A stretch of DNA of 64,000 bases from NCBI GenBank assembly GCA_000004695.1, contig CM000153.2, positions 800,001-864,000 of the forward strand, written 5' to 3'. The DNA comes from Dictyostelium discoideum (Eukaryota). Each line of letters begins with the position of its first letter. Positions within the stretch are counted from its first letter, which is position 1. The notes under the pieces were generated by a model. It did not search any database. It was not told where the DNA came from and saw nothing but the letters and a program-made list of their open reading frames with translations. The translations under genes and the position numbers were made by a program. Shown here piece by piece: positions 33,347 to 46,384 of the stretch.

Positions 33347-36266
33347 TTAAAAAACATATTTATTTAATATTGAGTTAATACTTTGTAATTGAGCTTGTAA
33401 CTCTGATGATATTTTGTTTGTAGTAGTAGTAGTAGTGGAAGGTGAGGATAAATTAGCGGATAAAGGTCTTGATGAAGTTACAGGTCTTCTAGTTGAAGAA
33501 GAAGAAGAAGAAGATGAGGAAGATGGAATAACTGGTTTTGGTTGTTCAGTTGTTATAAATTTAATGGATTCAAGTAATTGAGTAGCTTTTTGAGAGGATT
33601 GCATTTTACCAGGTTGACCACTTGAAGGGTCAGGTTGTTGAATTGTAGAGATGAGTGAATTATCTACCTCTTGAATTAACAAAGGTAGTGATTGAAGTAA
33701 TTGTTCATACAATTCCAATGGTATTGATTGTGGTGGTACATTATAGAGTATAGAGATAATAGTTAACATTGGGGTTGAATAACGTTCAGTATCATATGGT
33801 TTCAATCTATCTCTTTGTTGACTGTTCTTTATATATTCAATGAATTCTGGTGTTGCCAAATCATATTGGTCTTGAAGGTATTGATGAAATTCGTATTCTT
33901 CTGTGACAACATTTAAACAATTTAAAAGGACAATGAAAAATTGATCAAAAATAAACATATCCAATAAGATTGTCATATAAATTCTAATGATTGGCATTGA
34001 TAATATTAATGGTGGTTTATTCTTTGCGGAGAAATCAATTATATCTTCATCAGTTGCATTGGTTCCATCACCAATTGGAGCTGGACTATTTAATAATCTA
34101 AGGAAACCTTTCATAAAATGTAATTGATGAATGATTTGATCAGGGTTTGTTAAATATTCATTTAATTTCATTTCTTCTAAATCACCATTACCATAAATAA
34201 TTTGACCACCAATTGATGATGATAATTCTTTATCTTTAGAATTATTATTATTAGTAGTGGTAGTAGTAGTATTTGATCTACCCATTGAAGGTGATAATGA
34301 TATTGATGTTGTTGTTCCTGCTGCTGCTGTTGTTGTTGAAGATGAGTTACCACCAACTGAACTTGATCTATTATTTTTTAATAATGGTGAAGATGGTACT
34401 TGTAAAACACTATTATTACCACTAACATTTAATGGTGTTTGATTATTATTGTTTGAAGATGAAGATGATAATAAAATATTAGTTGAATCGCCTAAAGAAT
34501 ATTTCTTTTCAAATATACTTGGATGTAATAATAAACGAATGATTGGCATAATTTGAGATAATTTCAATTTAAATAATTCGATGACTTGAATTGCAAATTG
34601 AAAACATCTATTTGTATCATGAGCTAATAATACTTCGACGAGATCAACAATAGTTTCCATTCTAATACTATTTAAATCACCTTTTAATGTTGATAAAACG
34701 TCTCTCTCTATATCTTGAATTTCATCACCTACACCTTTAAAATTTTTAATATGATATTGAATATCCAAATTAACTTTTAATTCTTTAATTTTTGTCATTA
34801 AATTTGTGGATAACTTTGTTTGGAATTTTTCATAAAAAGTTGGTGGAATAAAGTACGCGTATTGTTCAATTTCGGCTAATGTCTCTTTTTTGCAATTCGC
34901 TTTTGGCATTGTTGATTTTAATACATCCGCTAGTGTATCATCTAAATTCTGTTGGAAACAAAGTGATAAAAGTATTTTAGCTTTCTCTAAACTCGTTGCA
35001 CTGCCAGCACGAGAATGTTTATTTGCTTGGGTGATTGCTTTCTCAAAGCCATTGATGAAATCACGATTGTAAATTAACCGTTCAGTGATTCTTTCAGAAC
35101 GTTCTTTCTTGTCGAATTTACTATGAATGATTGGATTCATGAATTTGGATTGAACATTTGCATAATATACTTCACCCGACTGATTAACACCATAACTATT
35201 GTACCCATCATTTTCAAAGAAACCACACGACACAAATGGTGATGTTTCATCCTTTTGAAATAGATTATAATGTGGTTCATTTAAAAGTGACCAAAATTTA
35301 TATTCACCATCAATACCAGAACTAACCAATAGTTCGCTATGAGCTGGACACCAATCGATTTTACTAATACTACTACTATGTGCAAGAAAACTAATTACAG
35401 GCTCTAAAGTTGAACGAAGATCCCAAATTGATATTTCACCACTATCAGTCGCTGATGCGAACCAATAAGGTACAAATGGATGCCATGCAACATCTTTAAT
35501 TGATACACTTGATTGATAAGATGATGAATTTTTACCATTACTACCACTACTACCACTAACACCACCACCACCACCACCACCTATTGCACCACTATTATTA
35601 AACCAAACTGTTGGTGATTTTCTTGTTGTACTATAACTACTTAATAAACGAGTATCAGTTATTTTTATAGAATTCTCAGAACCGCCAATTAAAGAATAAT
35701 TTCTTGAATGTGGTGACCATTGACTACAATAAACTGGTTGATCAGATACTTTGAATGTAATGGTTGGTCTAACTGCATCAGAGAAATCCCAAATATGATA
35801 ATAGTTATTCTCTAATGATGAAAATTGGTGAGTTGAAAGTTGATTGATTGCAACTGCTTTTATTGAGGTATTGAAACCCATCGAACCAATGGTTTGAGAA
35901 ACACTCTCTTTAAATCCTTTTAATTTCGTATGTACAAATGTCTCTCTCAATTCTGGATCATCCGTAGTGGTTGGATCGTTTTGATAATAATAAATATGAC
36001 CATCATTTGAACCTGCCACCATTGAATCATTCCACCATGATAATGATTTTATTGTTGATTCTTGTATAAACTCTTTAACTACTTTTACTGCTGGTTTACC
36101 ACCAATATTCTTTTCATTTGCATTTGCATCATTATTTGATTCTGGTCTTTTAATTGATACAACTCTACAAACATCTCTTTTTGTTGATGTATCTGATATT
36201 ACAATTTGATTTGATATCTATTAAAGTATATATATTAATCCAAAAATAAAAATTAATAAAAAACAA

Positions 36267-36301
<35 letters not shown>

Positions 36302-36465
36302 AAAATAGTTACATTTGAACTTGTAGCAGTTGTAATATTATCAATAGTTCTATCTAATAATCTTTCAAATGTTATATAATTCTTTTTATATCTCTTACCA
36401 GTGACTAATGCTAATTTTCTCCATGATGAACTTGCTTTACCTGGTGCATAAACATCTGTTCCCAT
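33347..36465 (-). CDS. Large WD40-repeat protein with C-terminal alpha-helical region, 2 exons, ~1007 aa
   Basis: Exon 1 is 36313-36465 (MGTDVYAPGKASSSWRKLALVTGKRYKKNYITFERLLDRTIDNITTATSSN, donor GTAACT). Exon 2 is 33347-36217, starting after tttaatag (ISNQIVISDTSTKRDVC...WWNDSMVAGSNDGHIYYYQ...). WD-repeat signatures are present (GSxDGxIxIWD, WH..., DWCPAHSELLVSSGIDGEYKFW). A poly-Gly/Ser insert is also present. Confidence 0.6.
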
Positions 36466-37649: not shown

Positions 37650-39734
37650 TTATAATTTATAATATGAACGTTTTGTAACACGACCATCAGAACCACAAGA
37701 GAATAAACCATTATTTTCTAATCTAACTTGCATTACACCATAGGTTGAAACTGGAGATTTGAAAACACCTGTTGGACGAACAAAAGTTTGTTTTTTATGA
37801 GCATCTTCAAAGGTATTGAGACAAGTCATCGATGGTAAGGACCAAATCTTAATGTTACCATCACTACTACCAGAGCAAACAAACTCTTCGAATGGATCCA
37901 ATGCCAATGATTTAGTATTTAAATGATGAGCTTTGAAACTTTCCAATTGTTTATGAGTACGAATATCGTAGAGTGACAATGAACCTTTCTTACCACCAAC
38001 GATGATAGTTTGACGTTTTGGAGAATAAACAATTGAGGATGCGCCATTCTCTTGATCGGTGTAAGAGGCAATCAATGATTTATTAGGTGGCAATAATACA
38101 TCCCATAGACAGATATCACGAGATTTGCTATCACTACTACTGATACCGGCAGTTGCCAATAAACTTCCAGAATTTAAAAATGTGAAATCCAAACATTGCT
38201 TAGAATGAGCTTGAAGTGAATAGAATGGTTTCAAGGTATCTTCTTGAGCTGCGAATTGCCACAACAAGATATTACCCGCCATATCGCATGCACCAAATTT
38301 AGTGCCACTTTGATTGAATTTACATCTAACGATTCTTGGTTTTTGAGGGAGTTGATAGGCAGTCAATACCTCTGGTATACCAAATTGCCATAAACAAACC
38401 GAACCATCGATACCACCCGATAAATAGAATGAAGAGTTTGGATGACTTTCTAAACATTGTACAATTATATTATGATCCATTTGTCTACTTGATCTTAAAC
38501 CACTGAATACCGTACTAATCTTACCTTTGGAGATGTTTAAAGATGAAACTGATTTACCAGTGATACGTGGTCTTTTATTATCTCTACTTGAAGATGGTGA
38601 ACTAATTAAATTCTCTGATGGATCTATATCATGTTCTTCCCTAATTTCACTAACCAATTGTTTATGATCAATCTCTCTAATACCACGAGTGGTTGCAATT
38701 GCCATAACATTTAATTCTGGTGAAGTTGGATCCAAACAAAATGATTGTAATAAATCACTATCCTTATAAATTTCAATCTCTTCTTCAAATTTAATTTTAC
38801 CACTACCACCACCAAATTGAACTTGGCTACCAACTTTTTTCAATGGCATTGGTTCATTATTTTTATTTACCTTACTATTATTATTATTGTTATTACCACC
38901 ATTAATATCTACTGGTAAAGTAATTTCAATACCAAGTATAATATGATCTAATAATTCTTTTTGATTTGTAATTAAAATTTTCCAAATTTGATATTGATCA
39001 GTTGAATTAAATTCTTTATAAGATTTTAAAAGTTCTAAAAAGTTTTCAATTGTTGTTTTAGTTGTATTATTGGTGAATTGATCTAAAATCTTTTGTGGAA
39101 CATGTAAAAGTTTTGATTGTGATGAACCAATCCAAAGTGATAAACGTTGATTCACTGAATCGAATACTTGATGGTATGGCAATGCCTTTACTAATTGATC
39201 GAAGCATTGTTTAAAATATTTCAATGAAAGGAAATCAAAGAATCTTTTTAAGAATTTATATATTAATTTCTTTTCATCATTAATTCTCTTTAATTCTTCT
39301 TTATCTAATATTTCATTTGGATCGTCATCTTCATCATCCATATCAAAATCATCATCATCATCATTATTATTATCACCAGCACCAATTAATTCATTATTTT
39401 CAGTATCTTTATAAGATCTAATTGGTAATTGTTTAATTTGATCAATGAATTGATTAAATTGTTGGATAGTATTCTTATTTTTGAATAATACTAATAACAC
39501 ATCGAAACGTTGTGAACCATAACCTAATAAAAATAACATCATATAAACTGTTGATAAAATCAATGAATGACTATGATAACGTTTATCAATAGACATAATT
39601 GATTGATAAATCTCTAATGAAACTGTTAATAATGGTTGTGATGCTGATGAATTCATTAACATTAAAATATTATCATCATCAAATCTTAATAATGATTTAA
39701 TTATTGAAATTGAAATTAATTCTAATATATCCAT
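37650..39734 (-). CDS. C-terminal WD40 region (694 aa) that probably belongs to the DmX-like/rabconnectin-3/Rav1 gene directly upstream on the same strand. Otherwise it is a separate WD40 gene
   Basis: C-terminal WD repeats: ...GSSDGNIKIWSLPSMTCLNTFEDAHKKQ...GVMQVRLENNGLFSCGSDGRVT. The 400 bp between this ORF and the upstream 1266-aa ORF is coding-like in three shifting frames with no intron signals. Confidence 0.55.
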   Translation of the reverse strand: MDILELISISIIKSLLRFDDDNILMLMNSSASQPLLTVSLEIYQSIMSIDKRYHSHSLILSTVYMMLFLLGYGSQRFDVLLVLFKNKNTIQQFNQFIDQIKQLPIRSYKDTENNELIGAGDNNNDDDDDFDMDDEDDDPNEILDKEELKRINDEKKLIYKFLKRFFDFLSLKYFKQCFDQLVKALPYHQVFDSVNQRLSLWIGSSQSKLLHVPQKILDQFTNNTTKTTIENFLELLKSYKEFNSTDQYQIWKILITNQKELLDHIILGIEITLPVDINGGNNNNNNSKVNKNNEPMPLKKVGSQVQFGGGSGKIKFEEEIEIYKDSDLLQSFCLDPTSPELNVMAIATTRGIREIDHKQLVSEIREEHDIDPSENLISSPSSSRDNKRPRITGKSVSSLNISKGKISTVFSGLRSSRQMDHNIIVQCLESHPNSSFYLSGGIDGSVCLWQFGIPEVLTAYQLPQKPRIVRCKFNQSGTKFGACDMAGNILLWQFAAQEDTLKPFYSLQAHSKQCLDFTFLNSGSLLATAGISSSDSKSRDICLWDVLLPPNKSLIASYTDQENGASSIVYSPKRQTIIVGGKKGSLSLYDIRTHKQLESFKAHHLNTKSLALDPFEEFVCSGSSDGNIKIWSLPSMTCLNTFEDAHKKQTFVRPTGVFKSPVSTYGVMQVRLENNGLFSCGSDGRVTKRSYYKL

Positions 39735-40142
39735 TGCTTTTTCATCACCATCTTCATTATTATTACTATTATTATTATTATTATTATTATATTTAGTTAA
39801 TTGAATTACTTGATAAACATATTGTCTATTTGAACAATATTCAATTAATGATTTAACAATTTCTTTTGGAATTAACTTGATTCTTTTTACATAAATATTC
39901 TAATGATTCTTTAAAATCTTTAAATTCCTCATCCCAATTATCAGCTTCTCTAGTTTCCATAATGGTTTCAAGTAAAACTTTAACAACCAATTTATCTTTT
40001 AATTCATTATCAATCAATGAATATAATGAAAGTTTTTCTTTTTTACTTGGTATGAATGTTGCTGCTTACAATGATGCTTCTGCATGCTGATAATGCTGCT
40101 TTATCTTCTCTATCTTTATTTGATTTTTCTTCTTCAATCTCT

Positions 40143-43100
40143 TTAATTGATTCTTCTTTTGGATTTATTACTATCTAACAACTCCCACCTATTATTATTA
40201 TTATTATTGGTGGTGGTTGATGATGGTGCACCAAAGTCTAAACCATAATTATTTGAAGATGATGATTGACTTGGTGTATTGAAATCTAATCCCATATAAT
40301 TTGATGATGAATTTTCTGGTTTTGATGGTGTACTACCAAAGTCTAAACCATAATTATTTGAATTTGATGATGATGATTGAGTTGGTGTATTGAAATCTAG
40401 TCCCATATAAGATGAAGAAGTCGATGGTTTTGATGGTGTACTACCAAAATCTAATCCTAAATCATTTGAATTTGATTGAGTTGGTGTATTGAAATCTAGT
40501 CCCATATAAGATGATGAAGTTGGTTTTGATGGTGCACTACCAAAATCTAAACCTAAATCATTTGAAGGTTTACTAAAGAAACCACTACTACTACCGCCTC
40601 CACCACCAAAATCTAAACCCAAATCATATGACGGTTTATTAAAGAAACCACTACCACCGCCACCACCACCAAAATCTAAACCTAAATCATTTGATTTTTG
40701 TTTTTCTTTTTCTAATCTTTCTTTTTCTTTTTCTTTTTCTTGTTGTTGTTGTTTTAATTTTTCTAATTTTTCAACTTCTTGACGTTCTTGATTATCAGTT
40801 AAAATGGTTGGATGAGATGCTTCTAATCTTTCAATATTTTCAAGTGCTAATAATGAACAACCACTATTGAAATAAGAGTAAGAACTAGTTCTTAAGAATT
40901 CATCTTCTTTCTTTTTATCCTCTGATAATTGACGTAATTGAACATGATTCTTTAAGAAACGGAAGAAATATAAAATGGAAGGACCTAATTGAGAAGCACG
41001 TAATTGTTGAGAGATTGGTGATACCACTTGAGTGGTTAAGGTTGTACCTGTAGCATTTGAGTAATTTGTACCAGTGGTTGATCTATTAATTGGTGATGAT
41101 ACCATTGAATTACGACTAGACATACCAATTGGTGTTGAATTACCAGAAACACCTAAACTATAACCACCACCACCACCACCACGTTGATTGTTATCATCTT
41201 CATCAAGTTTTCTATCACCATCTATTGAAACTGATGGTATTAAACATGTTATAGCATCTTCATACTTTTTCAATAACCAATTACAAATACTTAATAAACT
41301 ACGATCATTAGTTTTCTTTGCAAGTGGTATGATATGATCTTCAATGATCATACGTGAACATTCGCCATTCTCACCTTCATACAATCTTGAGATAACCAAT
41401 GCCAATTGGAAATCACCTTGCATTTGTAATAAAAGATTTACAGCTTTCTTTAATTGACCTGCTAAAAGGAATAATGAAGCAGCCAATTCATATTTATGTT
41501 TACTTTGTAAAAGGAATGCACTTTTATTTGCAGCAGTGATCCATTTAGCTTGAGTGAAATCTTGTGAAAGGAATTCAACTTGTTTTATATCTTTTGAAGC
41601 TTTATGCAATGCAACCAACGCACCTTTTTTACCCAATGCTAAATAATACAATGAACATTCTCTTGGGTCTCTTCTTTGAATGTAGGTTGTCTTTGCCAAC
41701 TTTTCCACTACATTTATCAAGGTACTTGGCGATTTAATCCACAAACCAGCACCAATTTGTTTTAAAGCATCCCAATCTGGATCGGTTGGGAAACAAGTTG
41801 AAAGAATAGTTTCTTGTGCCTCTGAATGTAACGCCCAAAGAATATCGGTTGTACTCAATGAGATTGGACGATCTTGTGGTGGTAATGATCTACGTAAAAA
41901 TTGGAATACCTTTGCTGACAATATGAAACGTGAACCATTCTCATCGAGACCACCTCTCATTTCACCAATTTCACCATAGGTATCGGTAACTGCTAACAAT
42001 TGAATTTGTTCACTACTTGAAAGATTACCCAATTTAATTGATGATAAAATTTCACTTAATTTTCTTGCTTGTCTTTTTGTAAATTTATTTGAATTTTCTA
42101 ATTCATCCCTATCACTATCGTCGTCGTCGTCGTCGTCATCGTCATCATCTTTATTACGATCATTACGATCATTATGATTATTCTTATCAATTGAATTCAT
42201 TCTATCCATATCATCAGAAGTACCAGTTTTCTTTGATTTTGAATTTGTAAATTCATCGAAATGAATAATCTCTTCAATTGATAATGGTGGTATGAAAACT
42301 GGTGATTTTGGTAAATCATTTAAATCATCATATTTTTCGAAAAGGAATTGACAAACATGTTTTAAGATCTTTTCAACAACACCAAATTTACCAGCCATCA
42401 TGTATTCAGTTAAGAATTTTGGATGATACATTGGTAAAGGACGTTGAAGTTCAGAATGTTGATGATAAATTGAATTCAATTTGGTATTGTAATCATGACC
42501 AACCGTTTGAAATTGTGATAATGCTAAGTTGTCATTGATGTTGTTAAGTTTTGACCATTTTGTAAACACCATAATTTGATTACCAGCACTAACATACAAT
42601 GATAGATCTTTACCCCATTCTAAGCTACTACATGGCGAGGTTAAATCATCATAGTTATGAGTTTGAACCCATGGTCTCTTATAACTACCAATCACTCTAT
42701 CCACTGGTTTATTTAAGATTTTCACTTGGTTACCATACCCAAATGCAACTGAATAGCTACCATCATCTAAACTAACAAAACTAAAACAACAACTAATAAT
42801 ATCCTCATGTGCCAATGACGATGATGATGCCGCTAATGCCGTTCCGACACCAACATTGTTTGTACTGGCTTTCAATAAAATTGTAGTTGTAAGTGGCGGT
42901 GATTTAAATGCACCAATTCCTGAAGTTGGTGATGTTATTATAACTTGTGGTGTATTTAATGGTGTAGCAATTGCTGTTGTTGTTGTTGTTGTTGTTGTTG
43001 TTATTGCTTGTGGTATTTCACTATCTATATAAAATTTAATGGTATCTTCTAAACGTAACTTTGGTGTATGTGATTCTAATTCCCAAATATGAATTTCTGG

Positions 43101-46100
43101 ATTTGGATTAGTAGAGAATGCTTTTGATGCAAATCTACCAAAATAAGCTGCTTTAACTGATTCAACTGGTTGTTGATATGCATGATAACCACCCATTTCA
43201 CCAATTGTCCAATCTTCGAATTTGATCTCTTCTTCACTATCACCACCCTTTACAAATGATATTTTTGGTGTTATACCAAATACTGATACATAACCATCAA
43301 TACTACCAGTAATACAAATTGGATGTGTTAAAACTACTCTATCTTCATTATTGTACTTTTCATTATTATTATTATTATTATTATCGTCATTATTATCGTC
43401 ATCATCATTATCACTAAAATCTTCATTTTGATTTTTATTCATTTTATTAATAGTTGTCATATCGAAAATACCTTTTGGTGCAGCACAAATACAAGAAATT
43501 CTTGAATCCCTTTCAAATTCTTTTGTTGCTAATAATTTTGATTTTAAAATTGATGGAGAGGATGATGAAGAATATTTGAAATCCTTTTCAACACTAACAC
43601 CCCAAACATATAATTTATCTGAATGTTTATTCAAACCAATTAAAAAGAATTGGTATGGTAATAAAACACTACTTTCACCACCACCACCACCATTACGTCT
43701 ACTGCTGTCGTTATTAACTTTATTCTTATCAAAATCCATTGAATTATAATGATAAATTAAATTTAATGGATCAACTATATGAACTTCATCAATCCAATCA
43801 TCCTCTAATGTTGATTCTTCAATCATACCAATTGATAACAATGATGATTTAACATAATTCTCTTGACTAATCTCTATATAATATACAAATATACCATCTC
43901 TATTTGAAAAGAAACAAAACTTTTGATTTGGTGACCATGTCATTGAATAATATGATGGAAATGATCCAATATCAATTAAATAATTTGGTGATTGAATTTT
44001 CTATAATAACAATAACAATAATAATAATCGAAAAATTAATAAATATTAAATTTAAAAATATTTGTTTTTAAATATAAACTTACACTTGAATCTGTTGAAT
44101 TCCAAATAATAACATTATTTTGATAATCTAAAGATGAAAGATATGGTGAATTTTTAGATGCTGCCAACTTTTTAATTGTACTTTTATGACCATAACATCT
44201 AGATACTGGTGATGCATTTGTACTATTATTATTATTATATGTACATATAATAATAAAAAAGAAAAAAAGTATTAGAATATATGTATATATATATATATAT
44301 TTATATTTTCATTTAAAAAAAAAAGATAAACATTACATTTGAGTTTGATTTTGATTTTGAATATAAAATCTTCTTGAAGAGATTGCACCATTAAAAGAGT
44401 TAAAACAAACTTTAATTGAACCAGGAGTATTATCAGTCAATGACATTGGTTGATATAATGAGATGATTCTATTTGGACCAATTTCTTGTGGTGATAAAAT
44501 TTGACTATTAATCCAAATTGATAATGATGAAGTTTGCTTTGTCATTGAATCATCTGTTCTTAATTTCCACAACACTAAAGAACCATCCAATTTAATAACA
44601 ATAATCCAATCAACTATTTGTTTAGTTTTTGCTAAAGAATCTTTTTGTCTTAATAAAATTGGATTTGTTAAATGTAATTTAAAATCATGACTTCTTAAAT
44701 ATGAATTTGAATCATCTGTTGAATTATTATTATTATTACTATTACTATTTAATGATGTACCTGTAGTTCCACTTGAAGATTTTGATAATTTACCACCACT
44801 AAAACCACCACCTGCATTATTATTATTATTACTATTACTATTATTTTTTTCATCATTTATATTATTATCTTCATTATTTTTATTAAATATATCAAATTTA
44901 TCTTCATTTTGAGAATAAACCCAATCAACAATATCAGAACCTGATGGTATAATACTTGAAACATTAAATTGTAATCTTCTAGATTGTGGTGATTGTTGCC
45001 ATAAACGGACAACACCATCTTTGCAATTTGTTAATAAGATATTATGAGTTGAAGTTTTTCTATTTCTCCAAGAAATCCAAGTGATTGAACGTGGATGTGG
45101 TAAATAAATGAAACCATAGGTTTCACCTTCAAATTTTTTATTTTTCTGCTTATTGAAAATCTCTTTCAATTGATTCAATTGTTTTTGTAATTCTTCAATT
45201 GATTGTTCTTCTTTTTGTGGTTGTTGTTGTTGCTGTTGTTGTTCTTTATTTTTATTAGCATCACCACCTTTTTCTCTTTCTTTTTCTTTTTGTAATTTAT
45301 CTCTTTTATTTAATTCAGTATTGATATCGTTTGAATCTTCACCAGTGCCAATGCCACCACTACTAACCACCTCGTCAAAACCAATTTTATTTGCTTTATA
45401 GATTGGGCCTTTGTTGGTGAGTTTATTGAATTGCTCTTTGTATGCACCTTTTCTGTTCTTTTGTTTGGCCAATTCCTCACGTTGTAATAGTAATGATAAT
45501 TGTTCTTGTTGTAATTTAATTTGTTGCTCCTCTGCCAATAGCTTTGCTTTTGATTTCTTTTGAAGGAACCAAACCTTAATTAAACGATCAAATTTACCAC
45601 AAGTTGCAAAGAATGAACCATCGGGTGAACATGATAAATTATTAATTGGACTTGAACTATCAGTTTTCCAAACGATTTGTGCTTGCTTATTAAATAATTT
45701 TTGTTCTTTTATTCTTTGATCTTGTAAAAACTTTTCATTATTAACTCTAACTTGTGTATTATTATTCAATGCACTCGTTGTTGGTGTATTATTACCGCTA
45801 CTATTTAAATTGATTTTATTAGTCGTTGTTGTTGAACTAAATTCTTGATCTAAACTATTATTTTTACCAAATGACGATGACGATGTTGAATTTGGTGATG
45901 ATGTTGAATTATAATTATAATTATTATTGGCAGAACTACTACCACTACCACTACTAACACCACCACCATTATTAATTTGATAATTTTTCATAATGGTTTG
46001 TTGATCTAATTTCCATTTTACAATTTGTGAATGACCACCAACAATAAAAGAATTTGATTGTAACCATGATAAAGCTGTAATTTCAAATTGACTTGGTATT

Positions 46101-46384
46101 GTGAATACGTGTTCCCATAATCCTCTTTCTTTATTTAAAACGTATAAAAAGATTTCATGTGATGATGATGTTAATAACTTTGTATCGTTTGATAACCATG
46201 ATACGCATGTAACATCACTTTGATGTCCTGTTAAAACTTGAATAACTTTCAATGAAACTCCTTTCAATATATAAACATTTGATCCTGATGAATAGGAATA
46301 ATAAACATCATCTTCATAAATTGTATATGTAAATGTTAAAGGATTAGAGTTTGCTGACCCTGTTATAATTTGACTGGGTTTCAT
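40143..46384 (-). CDS. DmX-like / rabconnectin-3 alpha / Rav1-family WD40 protein (V-ATPase RAVE-type regulator), N-terminal and central parts, >=3 exons
   Basis: Exons are 44337-46384 (MKPSQIITGSANSNP...; compare human DMXL MNLHQVLTGAVNPGD, ...FFATCGKFDRLIKVWF, GFIYLPHPRSITWISWRNRKT...LLTNCKDGVVRLWQ; donor GTAATG), 44084-44222 (TNASPVSRCYGHKSTIKK...YQNNVIIWNSTDSS, donor GTAAGT) and 40143-44000 (KIQSPNYLIDIGSFPSYYSMTWSPNQKF...; ends with a 10x GLDF repeat array and a stop at 40143). Confidence 0.7.

Follow-up and report, generated by a model that had tools for sequence, protein, structure and literature searches.

A minus-strand array of nine short peptide repeats with the core Gly-Leu-Asp-Phe (G-L-D-F) lies within a DmX-like gene of Dictyostelium discoideum (assembly GCA_000004695.1, contig CM000153.2, positions 800,001 to 864,000; this whole stretch of 64,000 nucleotides is referred to as the window and is numbered from its first letter). 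With a probability of roughly 60%, we read this array as the amplified form of a family-wide, apparently undescribed multivalent docking motif in a disordered linker of DmX-like proteins. Its most likely partner would be the free V1 sector of the vacuolar ATPase (V-ATPase) or another component of RAVE or of the membrane sector Vo.

At the array, coding sense is found on the minus strand only, in an open reading frame (ORF) of 1266 amino acids (40143-43943, minus strand). The repeats and an element that directly follows them are:

40230-40691, minus strand: array of nine 8-mers, NDLGLDFG, YDLGLDFG, NDLGLDFG, SYMGLDFN, NDLGLDFG, SYMGLDFN, NNYGLDFG, NYMGLDFN and NNYGLDFG
40173-40190, minus strand: degenerate acidic-hydrophobic element R-W-E-L-L-D, directly after the array; its D. 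purpureum counterpart is N-W-D-F-L-D

The initial annotation had correctly recognised a repeat array in a DmX-like ORF. It had counted ten copies; the number of G-L-D-F cores is nine (ORF residues 1088-1237), and its own list of motifs also comprised nine. The R-W-E-L-L-D element could be regarded as a tenth. On the minus strand, copies 1 to 5 occupy 40668-40691, 40605-40628, 40539-40562, 40488-40511 and 40443-40466, and copies 6 to 9 occupy 40389-40412, 40335-40358, 40278-40301 and 40230-40253. The corrected motif pattern is [N/Y/S]-x-[L/M/Y]-G-L-D-F-[G/N]. The motifs are spaced 15-22 residues apart by sequence rich in Gly, Ser, Thr, Pro and Asn, and units 1 and 2 additionally contain an S-G-F-F element. 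Because GLDF is absent from all six frames in the remainder of the 64 kb window, the array is not a product of chance. The duplication at the nucleotide level that had been noted earlier was recovered by Tandem Repeats Finder, which reported a period of 99 nucleotides at 40230-40566 (3.3 copies, 83% matches, score 405) and a period of 66 nucleotides at 40535-40694 (2.5 copies, 88% matches, score 255). The 66-nucleotide unit is of the NDLGLDFGGGGGGSGFFNKPSY type, and the 99-nucleotide repeat is a double unit, NDLGLDFGSTPSKP...YMGLDFNTPTQS... The array originated by tandem DNA duplication inside the DmX-like/Rav1 gene.

The DmX-like label of the host gene was also correct. Residues 390-1035 of the array ORF match the Pfam family Rav1p_C (PF12234) with E = 1.3e-99 and 334.8 bits (cut-off 27), and every sequence-level feature tested identifies the product as an ordinary member of the DMXL/Rav1 family. 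By this assignment it would belong to the family that supplies RAVE / rabconnectin-3, an assembly factor of the V-ATPase, with its large subunit. We found no paper on the Dictyostelium DmX-like protein. Three parts of the gene surround the array and define its position:

40809-42077, minus strand: helical bundle / alpha-solenoid of the Rav1p_C region, ending ...NSGCSLLALENIERLEASHP, which is aligned with the end ...KVGCPVLALEVLSKI of the human DMXL2 bundle
40695-40790, minus strand: Glu/Lys/Gln-rich segment QERQEVEKLEKLKQQQQEKEKEKERLEKEKQK, which connects the bundle to the array and is predicted to form a single long helix
37650-39875, minus strand: remaining DmX-like coding sequence for the C-terminal helical domain and the WD40 propeller, open for 742 codons

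An end-to-end alignment of the two bundles (human sequence from PMC12527914) yielded 34% identity and equates human ...KVGCPVLALEVLSKI with ...NSGCSLLALENIERL of the window; the array starts 40 residues past the end of the bundle. Within the bundle lies a 65-residue insert (41004-41198, minus strand) that is rich in Gly, Ser, Thr and Asn and predicted to be disordered.

The array had been placed at the end of the DmX-like ORF. This is true of the open frame, whose stop lies 28 codons past the last motif, but not of the protein. Four dictyostelid orthologues are full-length (those of D. purpureum, Heterostelium album, Synstelium polycarpum and the metagenomic locus L003), and in each of them the frame continues for about 800 residues past the array; the D. 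purpureum orthologue (XP_003287338, 2654 amino acids) is one unbroken protein from the array through the propeller. The alternative that orthologues lack the array and that the true stop lies upstream is contradicted by these sequences, which contain the array and place the stop downstream. The C-terminal WD40 propeller, a DMXL-type feature that is absent from yeast Rav1, is encoded in the window as well, where it is split from the array ORF by three frame disruptions. Judged by the orthologues, the array belongs by descent to an internal linker that connects the V1-binding helical bundle with the C-terminal helical domain plus propeller.

Conservation in other dictyostelids, which the initial annotation had proposed to examine, was clear. 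When the 163-residue array was compared by phmmer with 1.84 billion representative proteins, four strong matches resulted, all of which are dictyostelid DmX-like orthologues that contain the array. G-L-D-F is invariant in 40 of 40 copies from the window, D. purpureum, Heterostelium album, Synstelium polycarpum and one further dictyostelid. With the ten copies of locus L003 this figure rises to 50 of 50 in six dictyostelids, and the species sampled cover both orders, Dictyosteliales and Acytosteliales. Each species possesses 6-10 copies. The first 40 copies are spaced 14-25 residues apart; Gly follows the core (+1) in 36 of them, Asp occupies position -2 in 28, Met, Leu or Tyr directly precedes the core (-1), and -3 is mostly Asn or Tyr. 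The spacers are species-specific (GGGGSSSSYF, GPSTTSTSSNSNT, GAPTKSSSTY, GSPPKSNSNT and GSTPSKP / NTPTQS). Because both the spacers and the DNA repeat periods (66/99 nucleotides in the window versus 69 and 54/102 in D. purpureum) differ between species, the arrays appear to have been expanded or homogenised separately in each lineage, with retention of the core. Within the core codons of the window and D. purpureum, all seven variable sites are synonymous, a property that only 7 of the 36 possible single-base changes would have. This pattern points to purifying selection on G-L-D-F.

These data bear directly on the possibility that the array is tolerated filler, i.e. a neutral low-complexity expansion whose uniformity stems from recent duplication and gene conversion. 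Dictyostelium genomes are rich in simple tandem repeats. Accordingly, the tandem duplication with 83-88% identity between units, the homopolymer tracts in the same ORF (poly-Asn, poly-Thr, poly-Asp and poly-Gly) and the variation in copy number from 6 to 10 would all be expected of such filler. The identity of all 50 cores across both dictyostelid orders amid unrelated spacers, the restriction of core differences to synonymous ones and the presence of related motifs at the same site in distant relatives (see below) would not. An internal contrast is provided by the insert at 41004-41198 of the same protein, which lacks any conservation between dictyostelid species. Neutral expansion is therefore an improbable explanation.

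The array is predicted to be intrinsically disordered translated sequence. In an AlphaFold2 model of bundle plus array (alignment of 5 sequences; poor overall, with a mean confidence score pLDDT of 41), the bundle is helical, a long Glu/Lys helix precedes the array (segment 429-459 of the model, pLDDT 61-73), and the array itself is coil without secondary structure (pLDDT block means 25-32). In a second model, which comprises the D. purpureum array and C-terminal part (alignment of 18 sequences), the array is again coil (pLDDT 24-37) and is followed by the helical domain and by the propeller with a pLDDT of about 90. The general idea of a multivalent linear-motif platform in disordered sequence is thus in line with the invariant core, the synonymous codons and the pLDDT values; the tail position that had been assigned to this platform is not.

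The initial annotation had further stated that other DmX/Rav1 proteins are devoid of such an element. This view has to be revised, as related motifs of the form phi-[DE]-[WF]-[GSD] are present at the same position in human and mouse DMXL2 and in six metagenomic relatives. The pattern, counted as [LIVMFWYAP][DE][WF][GSD], was defined here and is not a curated family. The non-dictyostelid linkers form a small sample that was taken from published DMXL2 peptide sequences and from a metagenome scan with the bundle alignment, which yielded 13 loci. Where a locus included the end of the bundle and the sequence beyond it, an element of this kind was present in the linker. In these distant relatives the motifs begin within about 25-55 residues past the end of the bundle (...GC..LAL..L...). 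The human linker contains GIEWS, YDWS and LNLDWG, with their Trp residues at approximately 1950-1978, and the mouse linker GADWS, FDWS and LRLDWG. LNLDWG matches [LM]-G-L-D-F-G in four of six positions (L-4, L-2, D-1 and G+1), or in five if Trp is counted for Phe. For the metagenomic relatives, the corresponding elements are GDDWDFGAS, VNDWDFDSV and VDDWDFGTT in L004 (spaced 16 and 15 residues apart and clearly duplicated, with a weaker KEDWMTDD 14 residues further on); GMLDWGSP, DSLDWSTP, GADWSQP, AVDWW and SGLDWSQP in L009; LDIDWGLP and LNLDFDHE in L006; NVDWSEP and LVLDWSEDE in L007; SLLDFGPK in L010; and PDWSQP, SFDWSQP and LELKWDSD in L015. The window itself has nine copies of L-D-F-[GN] in this position.

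Human and mouse DMXL2 and the six metagenomic relatives have 1-4 strict matches each, and eight of the nine non-dictyostelid linkers examined carry at least one, counted in disordered sequence within about 150 residues past the end of the bundle. In total, 17 strict matches occur in 860 linker residues of eight relatives (mouse left out), compared to 0.35 expected, an enrichment that is optimistic because the pattern was written after the same sequences had been seen. The rest of the DMXL proteins contains 4 matches in 9,877 residues. It is plausible that the W-type and the F-type motifs have a common origin.

Two of the metagenomic loci display repeats of their own. L004:3100-3300 encodes three DDWDFG-type units with duplicated spacers of Lys, Thr, Glu and Pro, plus the weaker KEDW, and L009:5806-6400 encodes five or six [LA]-D-W-[GS] units. 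The linker motif has thus been amplified independently in these two eukaryotes, and its expansion is not confined to dictyostelids.

The linker of mammalian DMXL2 (rabconnectin-3 alpha; human residues ~1911-2002, mouse 1919-2029) is the closest known counterpart of the array. Both belong to the same family and lie directly past the Rav1p_C bundle. In both, acidic-aromatic elements (in the mammalian protein 12-17 residues apart) are followed by an acidic run and then by a helix, QLKFRACLKIL in mammals and ELKDKLVVKVLL in dictyostelids. The mammalian linker differs from the array in having three copies instead of nine and Trp instead of Phe, in being less uniform and in lacking any sign of recent tandem duplication. 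Its position is confirmed by the alignment of the bundles and by the cross-link peptides IPKVTK (K1910) and VTKTSALSAK (K1913), which cover K1910-K1921 and according to which the human stretch directly follows the bundle. The papers searched use this linker solely as an immunogen for antibodies and do not speak of a motif (for mouse, PMC10297199). The published immunogens, human ...SGIEWSNVTSSQYDWSQPIVKVDEEPLNLDWGEDHD... and mouse ...SGADWSAVTSSQFDWSQPMVTVDEEPLRLDWGDDHD..., are placed just downstream of the Rav1p_C domain (mouse 1919-2029, PMC10297199). The epitope ADWSAVTSSQFDWSQPMVTV of the monoclonal antibody 12D8 (mouse DMXL2 1919-2029, PMC10297199) spans two of the three mouse linker motifs, and the immunogen of Sigma HPA039375 spans all three human ones. 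Both antibodies are existing reagents that might block or report the linker element. The disordered C-terminus of yeast Rav1p (1194-1357) starts at the equivalent point, namely where the V1-binding alpha-solenoid ends, and was not resolved in cryo-electron microscopy (PMC11648922, PMC8264551). In contrast to the dictyostelid protein, the yeast chain ends there, without a further helical domain or a WD40 propeller.

A connection of the linker with the V-ATPase is suggested by published data on the human complex. The helical bundle binds V1 subunit A and, via a hydrophobic surface, the tail of V1 subunit D (PMC12527914; yeast structure in PMC11648922). Cross-linking of human mRAVE-V1 with bis(sulfosuccinimidyl)suberate (BS3) connected K1913, K1920 and K1921 to K49 of V1 D; K1939, K2008 and K2013 to K20 of V1 D; and K1920 and K1921 to K53 and K34 of V1 G1 (PMC12527914, Supplementary Table 3). 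The V1-linked lysines flank the human motif cluster on both sides. In the known V-ATPase structure, subunits C1 and H are located at the membrane-facing side of V1. Since K16 of G1 was also cross-linked to C1 and H (PMC12527914, Supplementary Table 3), bundle and linker probably lie near this side. The cross-links place the human linker close to V1 D and G1, which is not the same as a motif-specific contact.

An element that is common to dictyostelids and animals should have a conserved partner, which makes the V-ATPase the obvious candidate; it is probably the partner of the motif. Among the partners named in the initial annotation, the V-ATPase is the only one with support, albeit of the indirect kind provided by the cross-links. 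We infer that the motif is a binding site, that its W-type and F-type versions are the same element and that its partner is of this kind. The dictyostelid array would then be a Phe-type version of the DMXL linker motif phi-[DE]-[W/F]-[G/S/D], tandemly amplified to 6-10 copies. Each repeat would offer a short acidic-hydrophobic peptide with the consensus [N/Y]-D-[L/M]-G-L-D-F-G, and several weak copies on one flexible chain would bind a single conserved partner by avidity. Free V1 would most likely provide the surface to which they bind; the alternative is a different component of RAVE or Vo. The array may help to capture or position V1 for re-assembly.

Several observations weigh against such a docking function. 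Copies within one species are recent duplicates and thus not independent observations. The cross-links may only reflect the tethering of the linker to the V1-bound bundle. Some of the relatives are kin to one another (human and L015), and positions in the disordered linkers cannot be aligned column by column. In a divergent homologue (P0002 / L001), the site offers no more than NFFGSSAFG, which lacks an acidic residue. A profile of the motif had no relevant match among the chain sequences of the PDB (the presence of yeast Rav1 there was not separately checked), and the PDB contains no DMXL chain. Finally, in neither AlphaFold2 model, both of which rest on shallow alignments, was a motif docked on the bundle or on the C-terminal domains, nor did confidence rise; for intramolecular binding, this null result is weak negative evidence.

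Intramolecular binding is the essence of a different proposal, in which the motifs mimic the C-terminal tail of V1 subunit D and occupy, in cis, the D-tail groove of the adjacent bundle; the assembly factor would be auto-inhibited until their release. The bundle does take the D tail on a hydrophobic surface (PMC12527914), and a tether of about 40 residues would keep the motifs at a high local concentration. The D tail (human ...EEKDEDLLFE, yeast ...DQEDDVIF) shares with the array an acidic run and an aliphatic-x-Phe element, belongs to the same machine and has its receptor next to the array. After alignment on Phe, D-x-x-L-x-F is common to DEDLLF and D[LM]GLDF. This is all they have in common, and the tail is a single copy at the end of a chain. 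The resemblance is thus weak: agreement is limited to three of six positions, and a similar score would be expected of any acidic-hydrophobic peptide. Given in addition that the (poor) model of bundle plus array shows neither docking nor a gain in confidence at the motifs, and that the animal elements EWS, DWS and LDWG are even less like the D tail, we consider auto-inhibition by a decoy unlikely.

In order to compare the array with known classes of linear motifs, patterns of the kind listed in ELM and in primary papers were scanned in the arrays of five dictyostelid species. Zero matches were obtained for the clathrin box L[IVLMF]x[IVLMF][DE], the W-box PWxxW and the arrestin-type [LI][LI]GxL; for DLL/DLF (D[LI][LF]), DP[FW], FxDxF, WxxF, NPF and acidic dileucine motifs; for the gamma-ear motif [DE][DES][DEGAS]F[SGAD][DEAP][LVIMFD] in its full or core form; and for LFa, FFAT, KLC W-acidic, LC8 TQT, PTAP, YPxL, ABBA, WIRS, LD and SHP box motifs. 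Apart from generic Ser/Thr kinase sites, which vary between species, the only consistent pattern was the dipeptide Phe-Gly (FG; 36 of 40 copies). The net charge of the five arrays ranges from -9 to -13.

Clathrin and adaptor ears had been among the partners suggested earlier, and a platform for clathrin or adaptor appendages would couple the assembly factor to coated vesicles. AP180, epsin and Eps15 bind clathrin and AP-2 through arrays of DLL/DLF, DPW/DPF and NPF motifs. The dictyostelid array is similar to these regions in its many short acidic/Leu/Phe motifs and in the spacers of 15-25 residues, disordered and rich in Ser, Thr, Gly and Pro. The patterns that define these regions are absent here, as the scan of all five species returned no clathrin, adaptor or ear motif, and the animal motifs are W-based and lie beside V1 in the cross-linking data. 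A role in coated vesicles is thus very unlikely.

The FG dipeptides raise the question of whether the array acts as a series of stickers and spacers, in which aromatic residues drive self-association or condensates, or bind HEAT/ARM surfaces such as that of V1 H, without a single pocket. The array resembles the GLFG-type nucleoporins in the G-L-x-F-G-like core, the frequency of FG, the Ser/Thr/Asn/Gly spacers of 14-25 residues and the small number of charges beyond the Asp of the motif; the first units contain extra GFF / SYF / SFF elements. In contrast to GLFG domains, an Asp is inserted before the Phe, which makes the array net negative; each motif contains one or two Asp, there are only 6-10 copies, an exact GLFG is absent, and the host is a cytoplasmic V-ATPase assembly factor. 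Moreover, G, L and D are as strictly invariant as F, which argues for sequence-specific recognition, and the aromatic residue is often followed by S or D instead of G in the animal relatives. Action as an FG-like domain is for these reasons improbable, too.

A further possibility is that the array recruits the assembly factor to membranes decorated with ATG8, i.e. that the motifs are LC3-interacting regions (LIRs). In human DMXL1, a candidate LIR, ED-FLVI (2695-2698), is located in an unstructured region before the last WD40 domain and is needed for recruitment to lysosomes (PMC12246789). By analogy, three motifs of the window read Y-M-G-L, which fits the core [WFY]xx[LIV], and the first element of human and mouse DMXL2 is [ED]-W-S-x-V. 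However, most copies and species lack the core: in the five species it was found 4, 1, 1, 0 and 1 times in its loose form and 0, 1, 2, 0 and 0 times in its strict form. Y-D-M-G and N-D-L-G do not fit, the stricter ELM form bars Gly at the second x, and the invariant G-L-D-F residues are not LIR positions. An ATG8-binding array is consequently most unlikely.

Resemblances to three further proteins or protein groups were noted. The LFa repeats of FAM21, a component of the WASH complex, bind VPS35 of retromer and act by avidity. Like the array, they consist of many short Leu/Phe/acidic motifs strung along extensive disorder, here in an endosomal regulator; unlike it, their motifs have the order L-F-acidic run and not G-L-D-F-G, and FAM21, whose partner is known, is unrelated to the DmX-like protein. 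Bacterial CheA-like kinases and FimV-like proteins contain the nearly identical DLGLDF[DG] in tandem (P0006, MDLGLDFDSL..., E = 1.8e-6 against the array of the window). As their spacers are highly acidic and homology does not extend beyond the repeat, this similarity looks, by sequence comparison, like one of convergence and not of ancestry. Long acidic-repeat arrays of this sort occur in a CheA-type hybrid histidine kinase (P0006), an Hpt-domain protein (P0009), a FimV-like protein (P0010) and an unannotated protein (P0011), with the repeat types MDLGLDF[DG]..., ELDLG[IL]T..., EEDLSLEFEP... and NDLAGLDFTA... The phmmer matches beyond the DMXL family (P0006-P0011), for the most part repeat proteins from bacteria or others without relation to it, are uninformative on function. 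The C-terminus of human midnolin (plasmid sequence in PMC10617673) includes SGLGLDFEDS in a Ser/Gly-rich context, probably by coincidence; the two papers concerned make no mention of this string.

The end of the array ORF at 40143 is caused by three small frame disruptions. Protein and DNA alignments to D. purpureum located these three departures from one frame within about 330 nucleotides after the array (39860-40172, minus strand):

40143-40172, minus strand: frame disruption 1 and the stop codon of the ORF (40143-40145); 10 nucleotides, AGTAATAAAT, in the window versus 6 nucleotides, ACAAAA, in D. purpureum
40044-40100, minus strand: frame disruption 2, a net length difference of 4 nucleotides from D. 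purpureum in a poorly conserved stretch, followed by the new frame SKKEKLSLYSLIDNELKDKLVVKVLLETIMETRE...
39860-39880, minus strand: frame disruption 3, one extra base compared to D. purpureum, near 39866 / TCCAAAAGAAATT; the frame of the array ORF is restored, KEIVKSLIEYCSNRQY...

Past disruption 1 (near 40146-40172), homology resumes in the +1 frame (NPKEESIKEIEEEK versus KPKEELMKEQEEQEK). All three disruptions shift the frame in the same direction, and because the shifts total a multiple of three, the last 742 codons are back in the frame of the array. Between the shifts, each segment keeps an open frame of its own and still resembles D. purpureum. The tail at 37650-39875 has WD40 family matches and aligns to D. 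purpureum residues 1952-2654; the chance that 742 codons stay open is about 7e-31.

Introns were considered as the cause of the ORF end and rejected. Frame-restoring GT...AG pairs mostly span 14-33 nucleotides and are too short. Two longer candidates (~109 and ~146 nucleotides; worked by hand) would excise coding sequence that is conserved in D. purpureum, and no intron can repair the site of disruption 3. The region 40044-40190 has an A+T content of 68%, compared to 90% in both real introns of this gene, and is not intron-like. Exact-product look-ups found neither ORF product on record elsewhere. Since introns fail as an explanation, and the segments between the shifts and the tail remain open and similar to D. 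purpureum, the disruptions are either errors of assembly or sequencing next to a repeat, or very recent mutations. As the sequence stands, a DmX-like gene of ~2,860 codons would be called a truncated protein plus an orphan WD40 ORF of 742 codons, which matters for the annotation of the locus.

The 5' part of the gene also lies within the window. An upstream ORF (44333-46384, minus strand) with WD40 family matches is linked to the array ORF via two canonical introns:

44001-46384, minus strand: 5' part of the gene, with exon 1 at 46384-44337 (N-terminal WD40), exon 2 at 44222-44084 and exon 3 from 44000 through the array
44336-44223, minus strand: intron 1, GTAATG...TAATAG, 114 nucleotides, 90% A+T
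44083-44001, minus strand: intron 2, GTAAGT...TTATAG, 83 nucleotides, 90% A+T

After removal of the two introns, the joined 5' product matches D. purpureum residues 1-760. The spliced product up to the stop of the ORF comprises 2014 amino acids, of which approximately residues 1833-1986 form the array. In one other dictyostelid, the annotation divides the orthologue between two neighbouring gene models (P0001 and P0012, eukprot gene8619 / gene8618) with a break ~190 residues past the array. This split is probably a gene-model artefact, and it illustrates that the region is hard to annotate. The D. purpureum orthologue is followed downstream (L002:10352-12119) by a LAMTOR5 gene and by a WD40 gene that matches EIPR1-type propellers. 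The WD40 counterpart in the window is the ORF at 33347-36022 (EIPR1 / RIG propeller matches), and over the region compared, 33347-36465, the gene order looks conserved. The small ORF at 36268-36465 has no Pfam match, and LAMTOR5 is unconfirmed in the window.

Strings of short motifs in disordered regions are a known kind of element, as exemplified by AP180, FAM21 and the FG nucleoporins. What appears to be new is the motif itself, its strict conservation and amplification in Dictyostelia, and its recurrence at a fixed site in the DMXL relatives examined. A literature search for the motif strings found no description of the motif and incidental occurrences only, such as midnolin and the DMXL2 immunogens, and the RAVE/mRAVE papers searched mention neither a linker motif nor a disordered linker. 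How RAVE and mRAVE recognise free V1, are recruited to membranes and let go of the assembled pump is under active study, and the structures and complexes of 2024-2026 concern folded domains (PMC12527914, PMC11648922, PMC12246789). A bolder version of the docking hypothesis, which we put forward only tentatively and regard as more doubtful than the docking function itself, is that the phi-[DE]-[W/F]-[G/S] cluster serves RAVE/mRAVE throughout the eukaryotes as a docking element that has so far escaped recognition. It would hold free V1 by its membrane-facing surfaces, i.e. by the rotor subunit D and by the E/G stalks at their N-terminal ends, and pass it on to Vo, and it would have been amplified to 6-10 copies in dictyostelids. 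The contractile-vacuole membranes of dictyostelids are exceptionally crowded with V-ATPase, and the amplification is perhaps owed to this crowding. If the cluster is indeed a pan-eukaryotic docking element, the Dictyostelium array would be the clearest natural gain-of-valency allele of a motif that is present, and can be mutated, in human DMXL1/2. By its invariance across Dictyostelia, its recurrence at one site in the human, mouse and metagenomic relatives examined and its place next to V1 D and G1 in the cross-linking data, the motif offers a concrete and cheaply testable handle on RAVE/mRAVE, both in a haploid, genetically tractable amoeba and in the existing human rescue assays.

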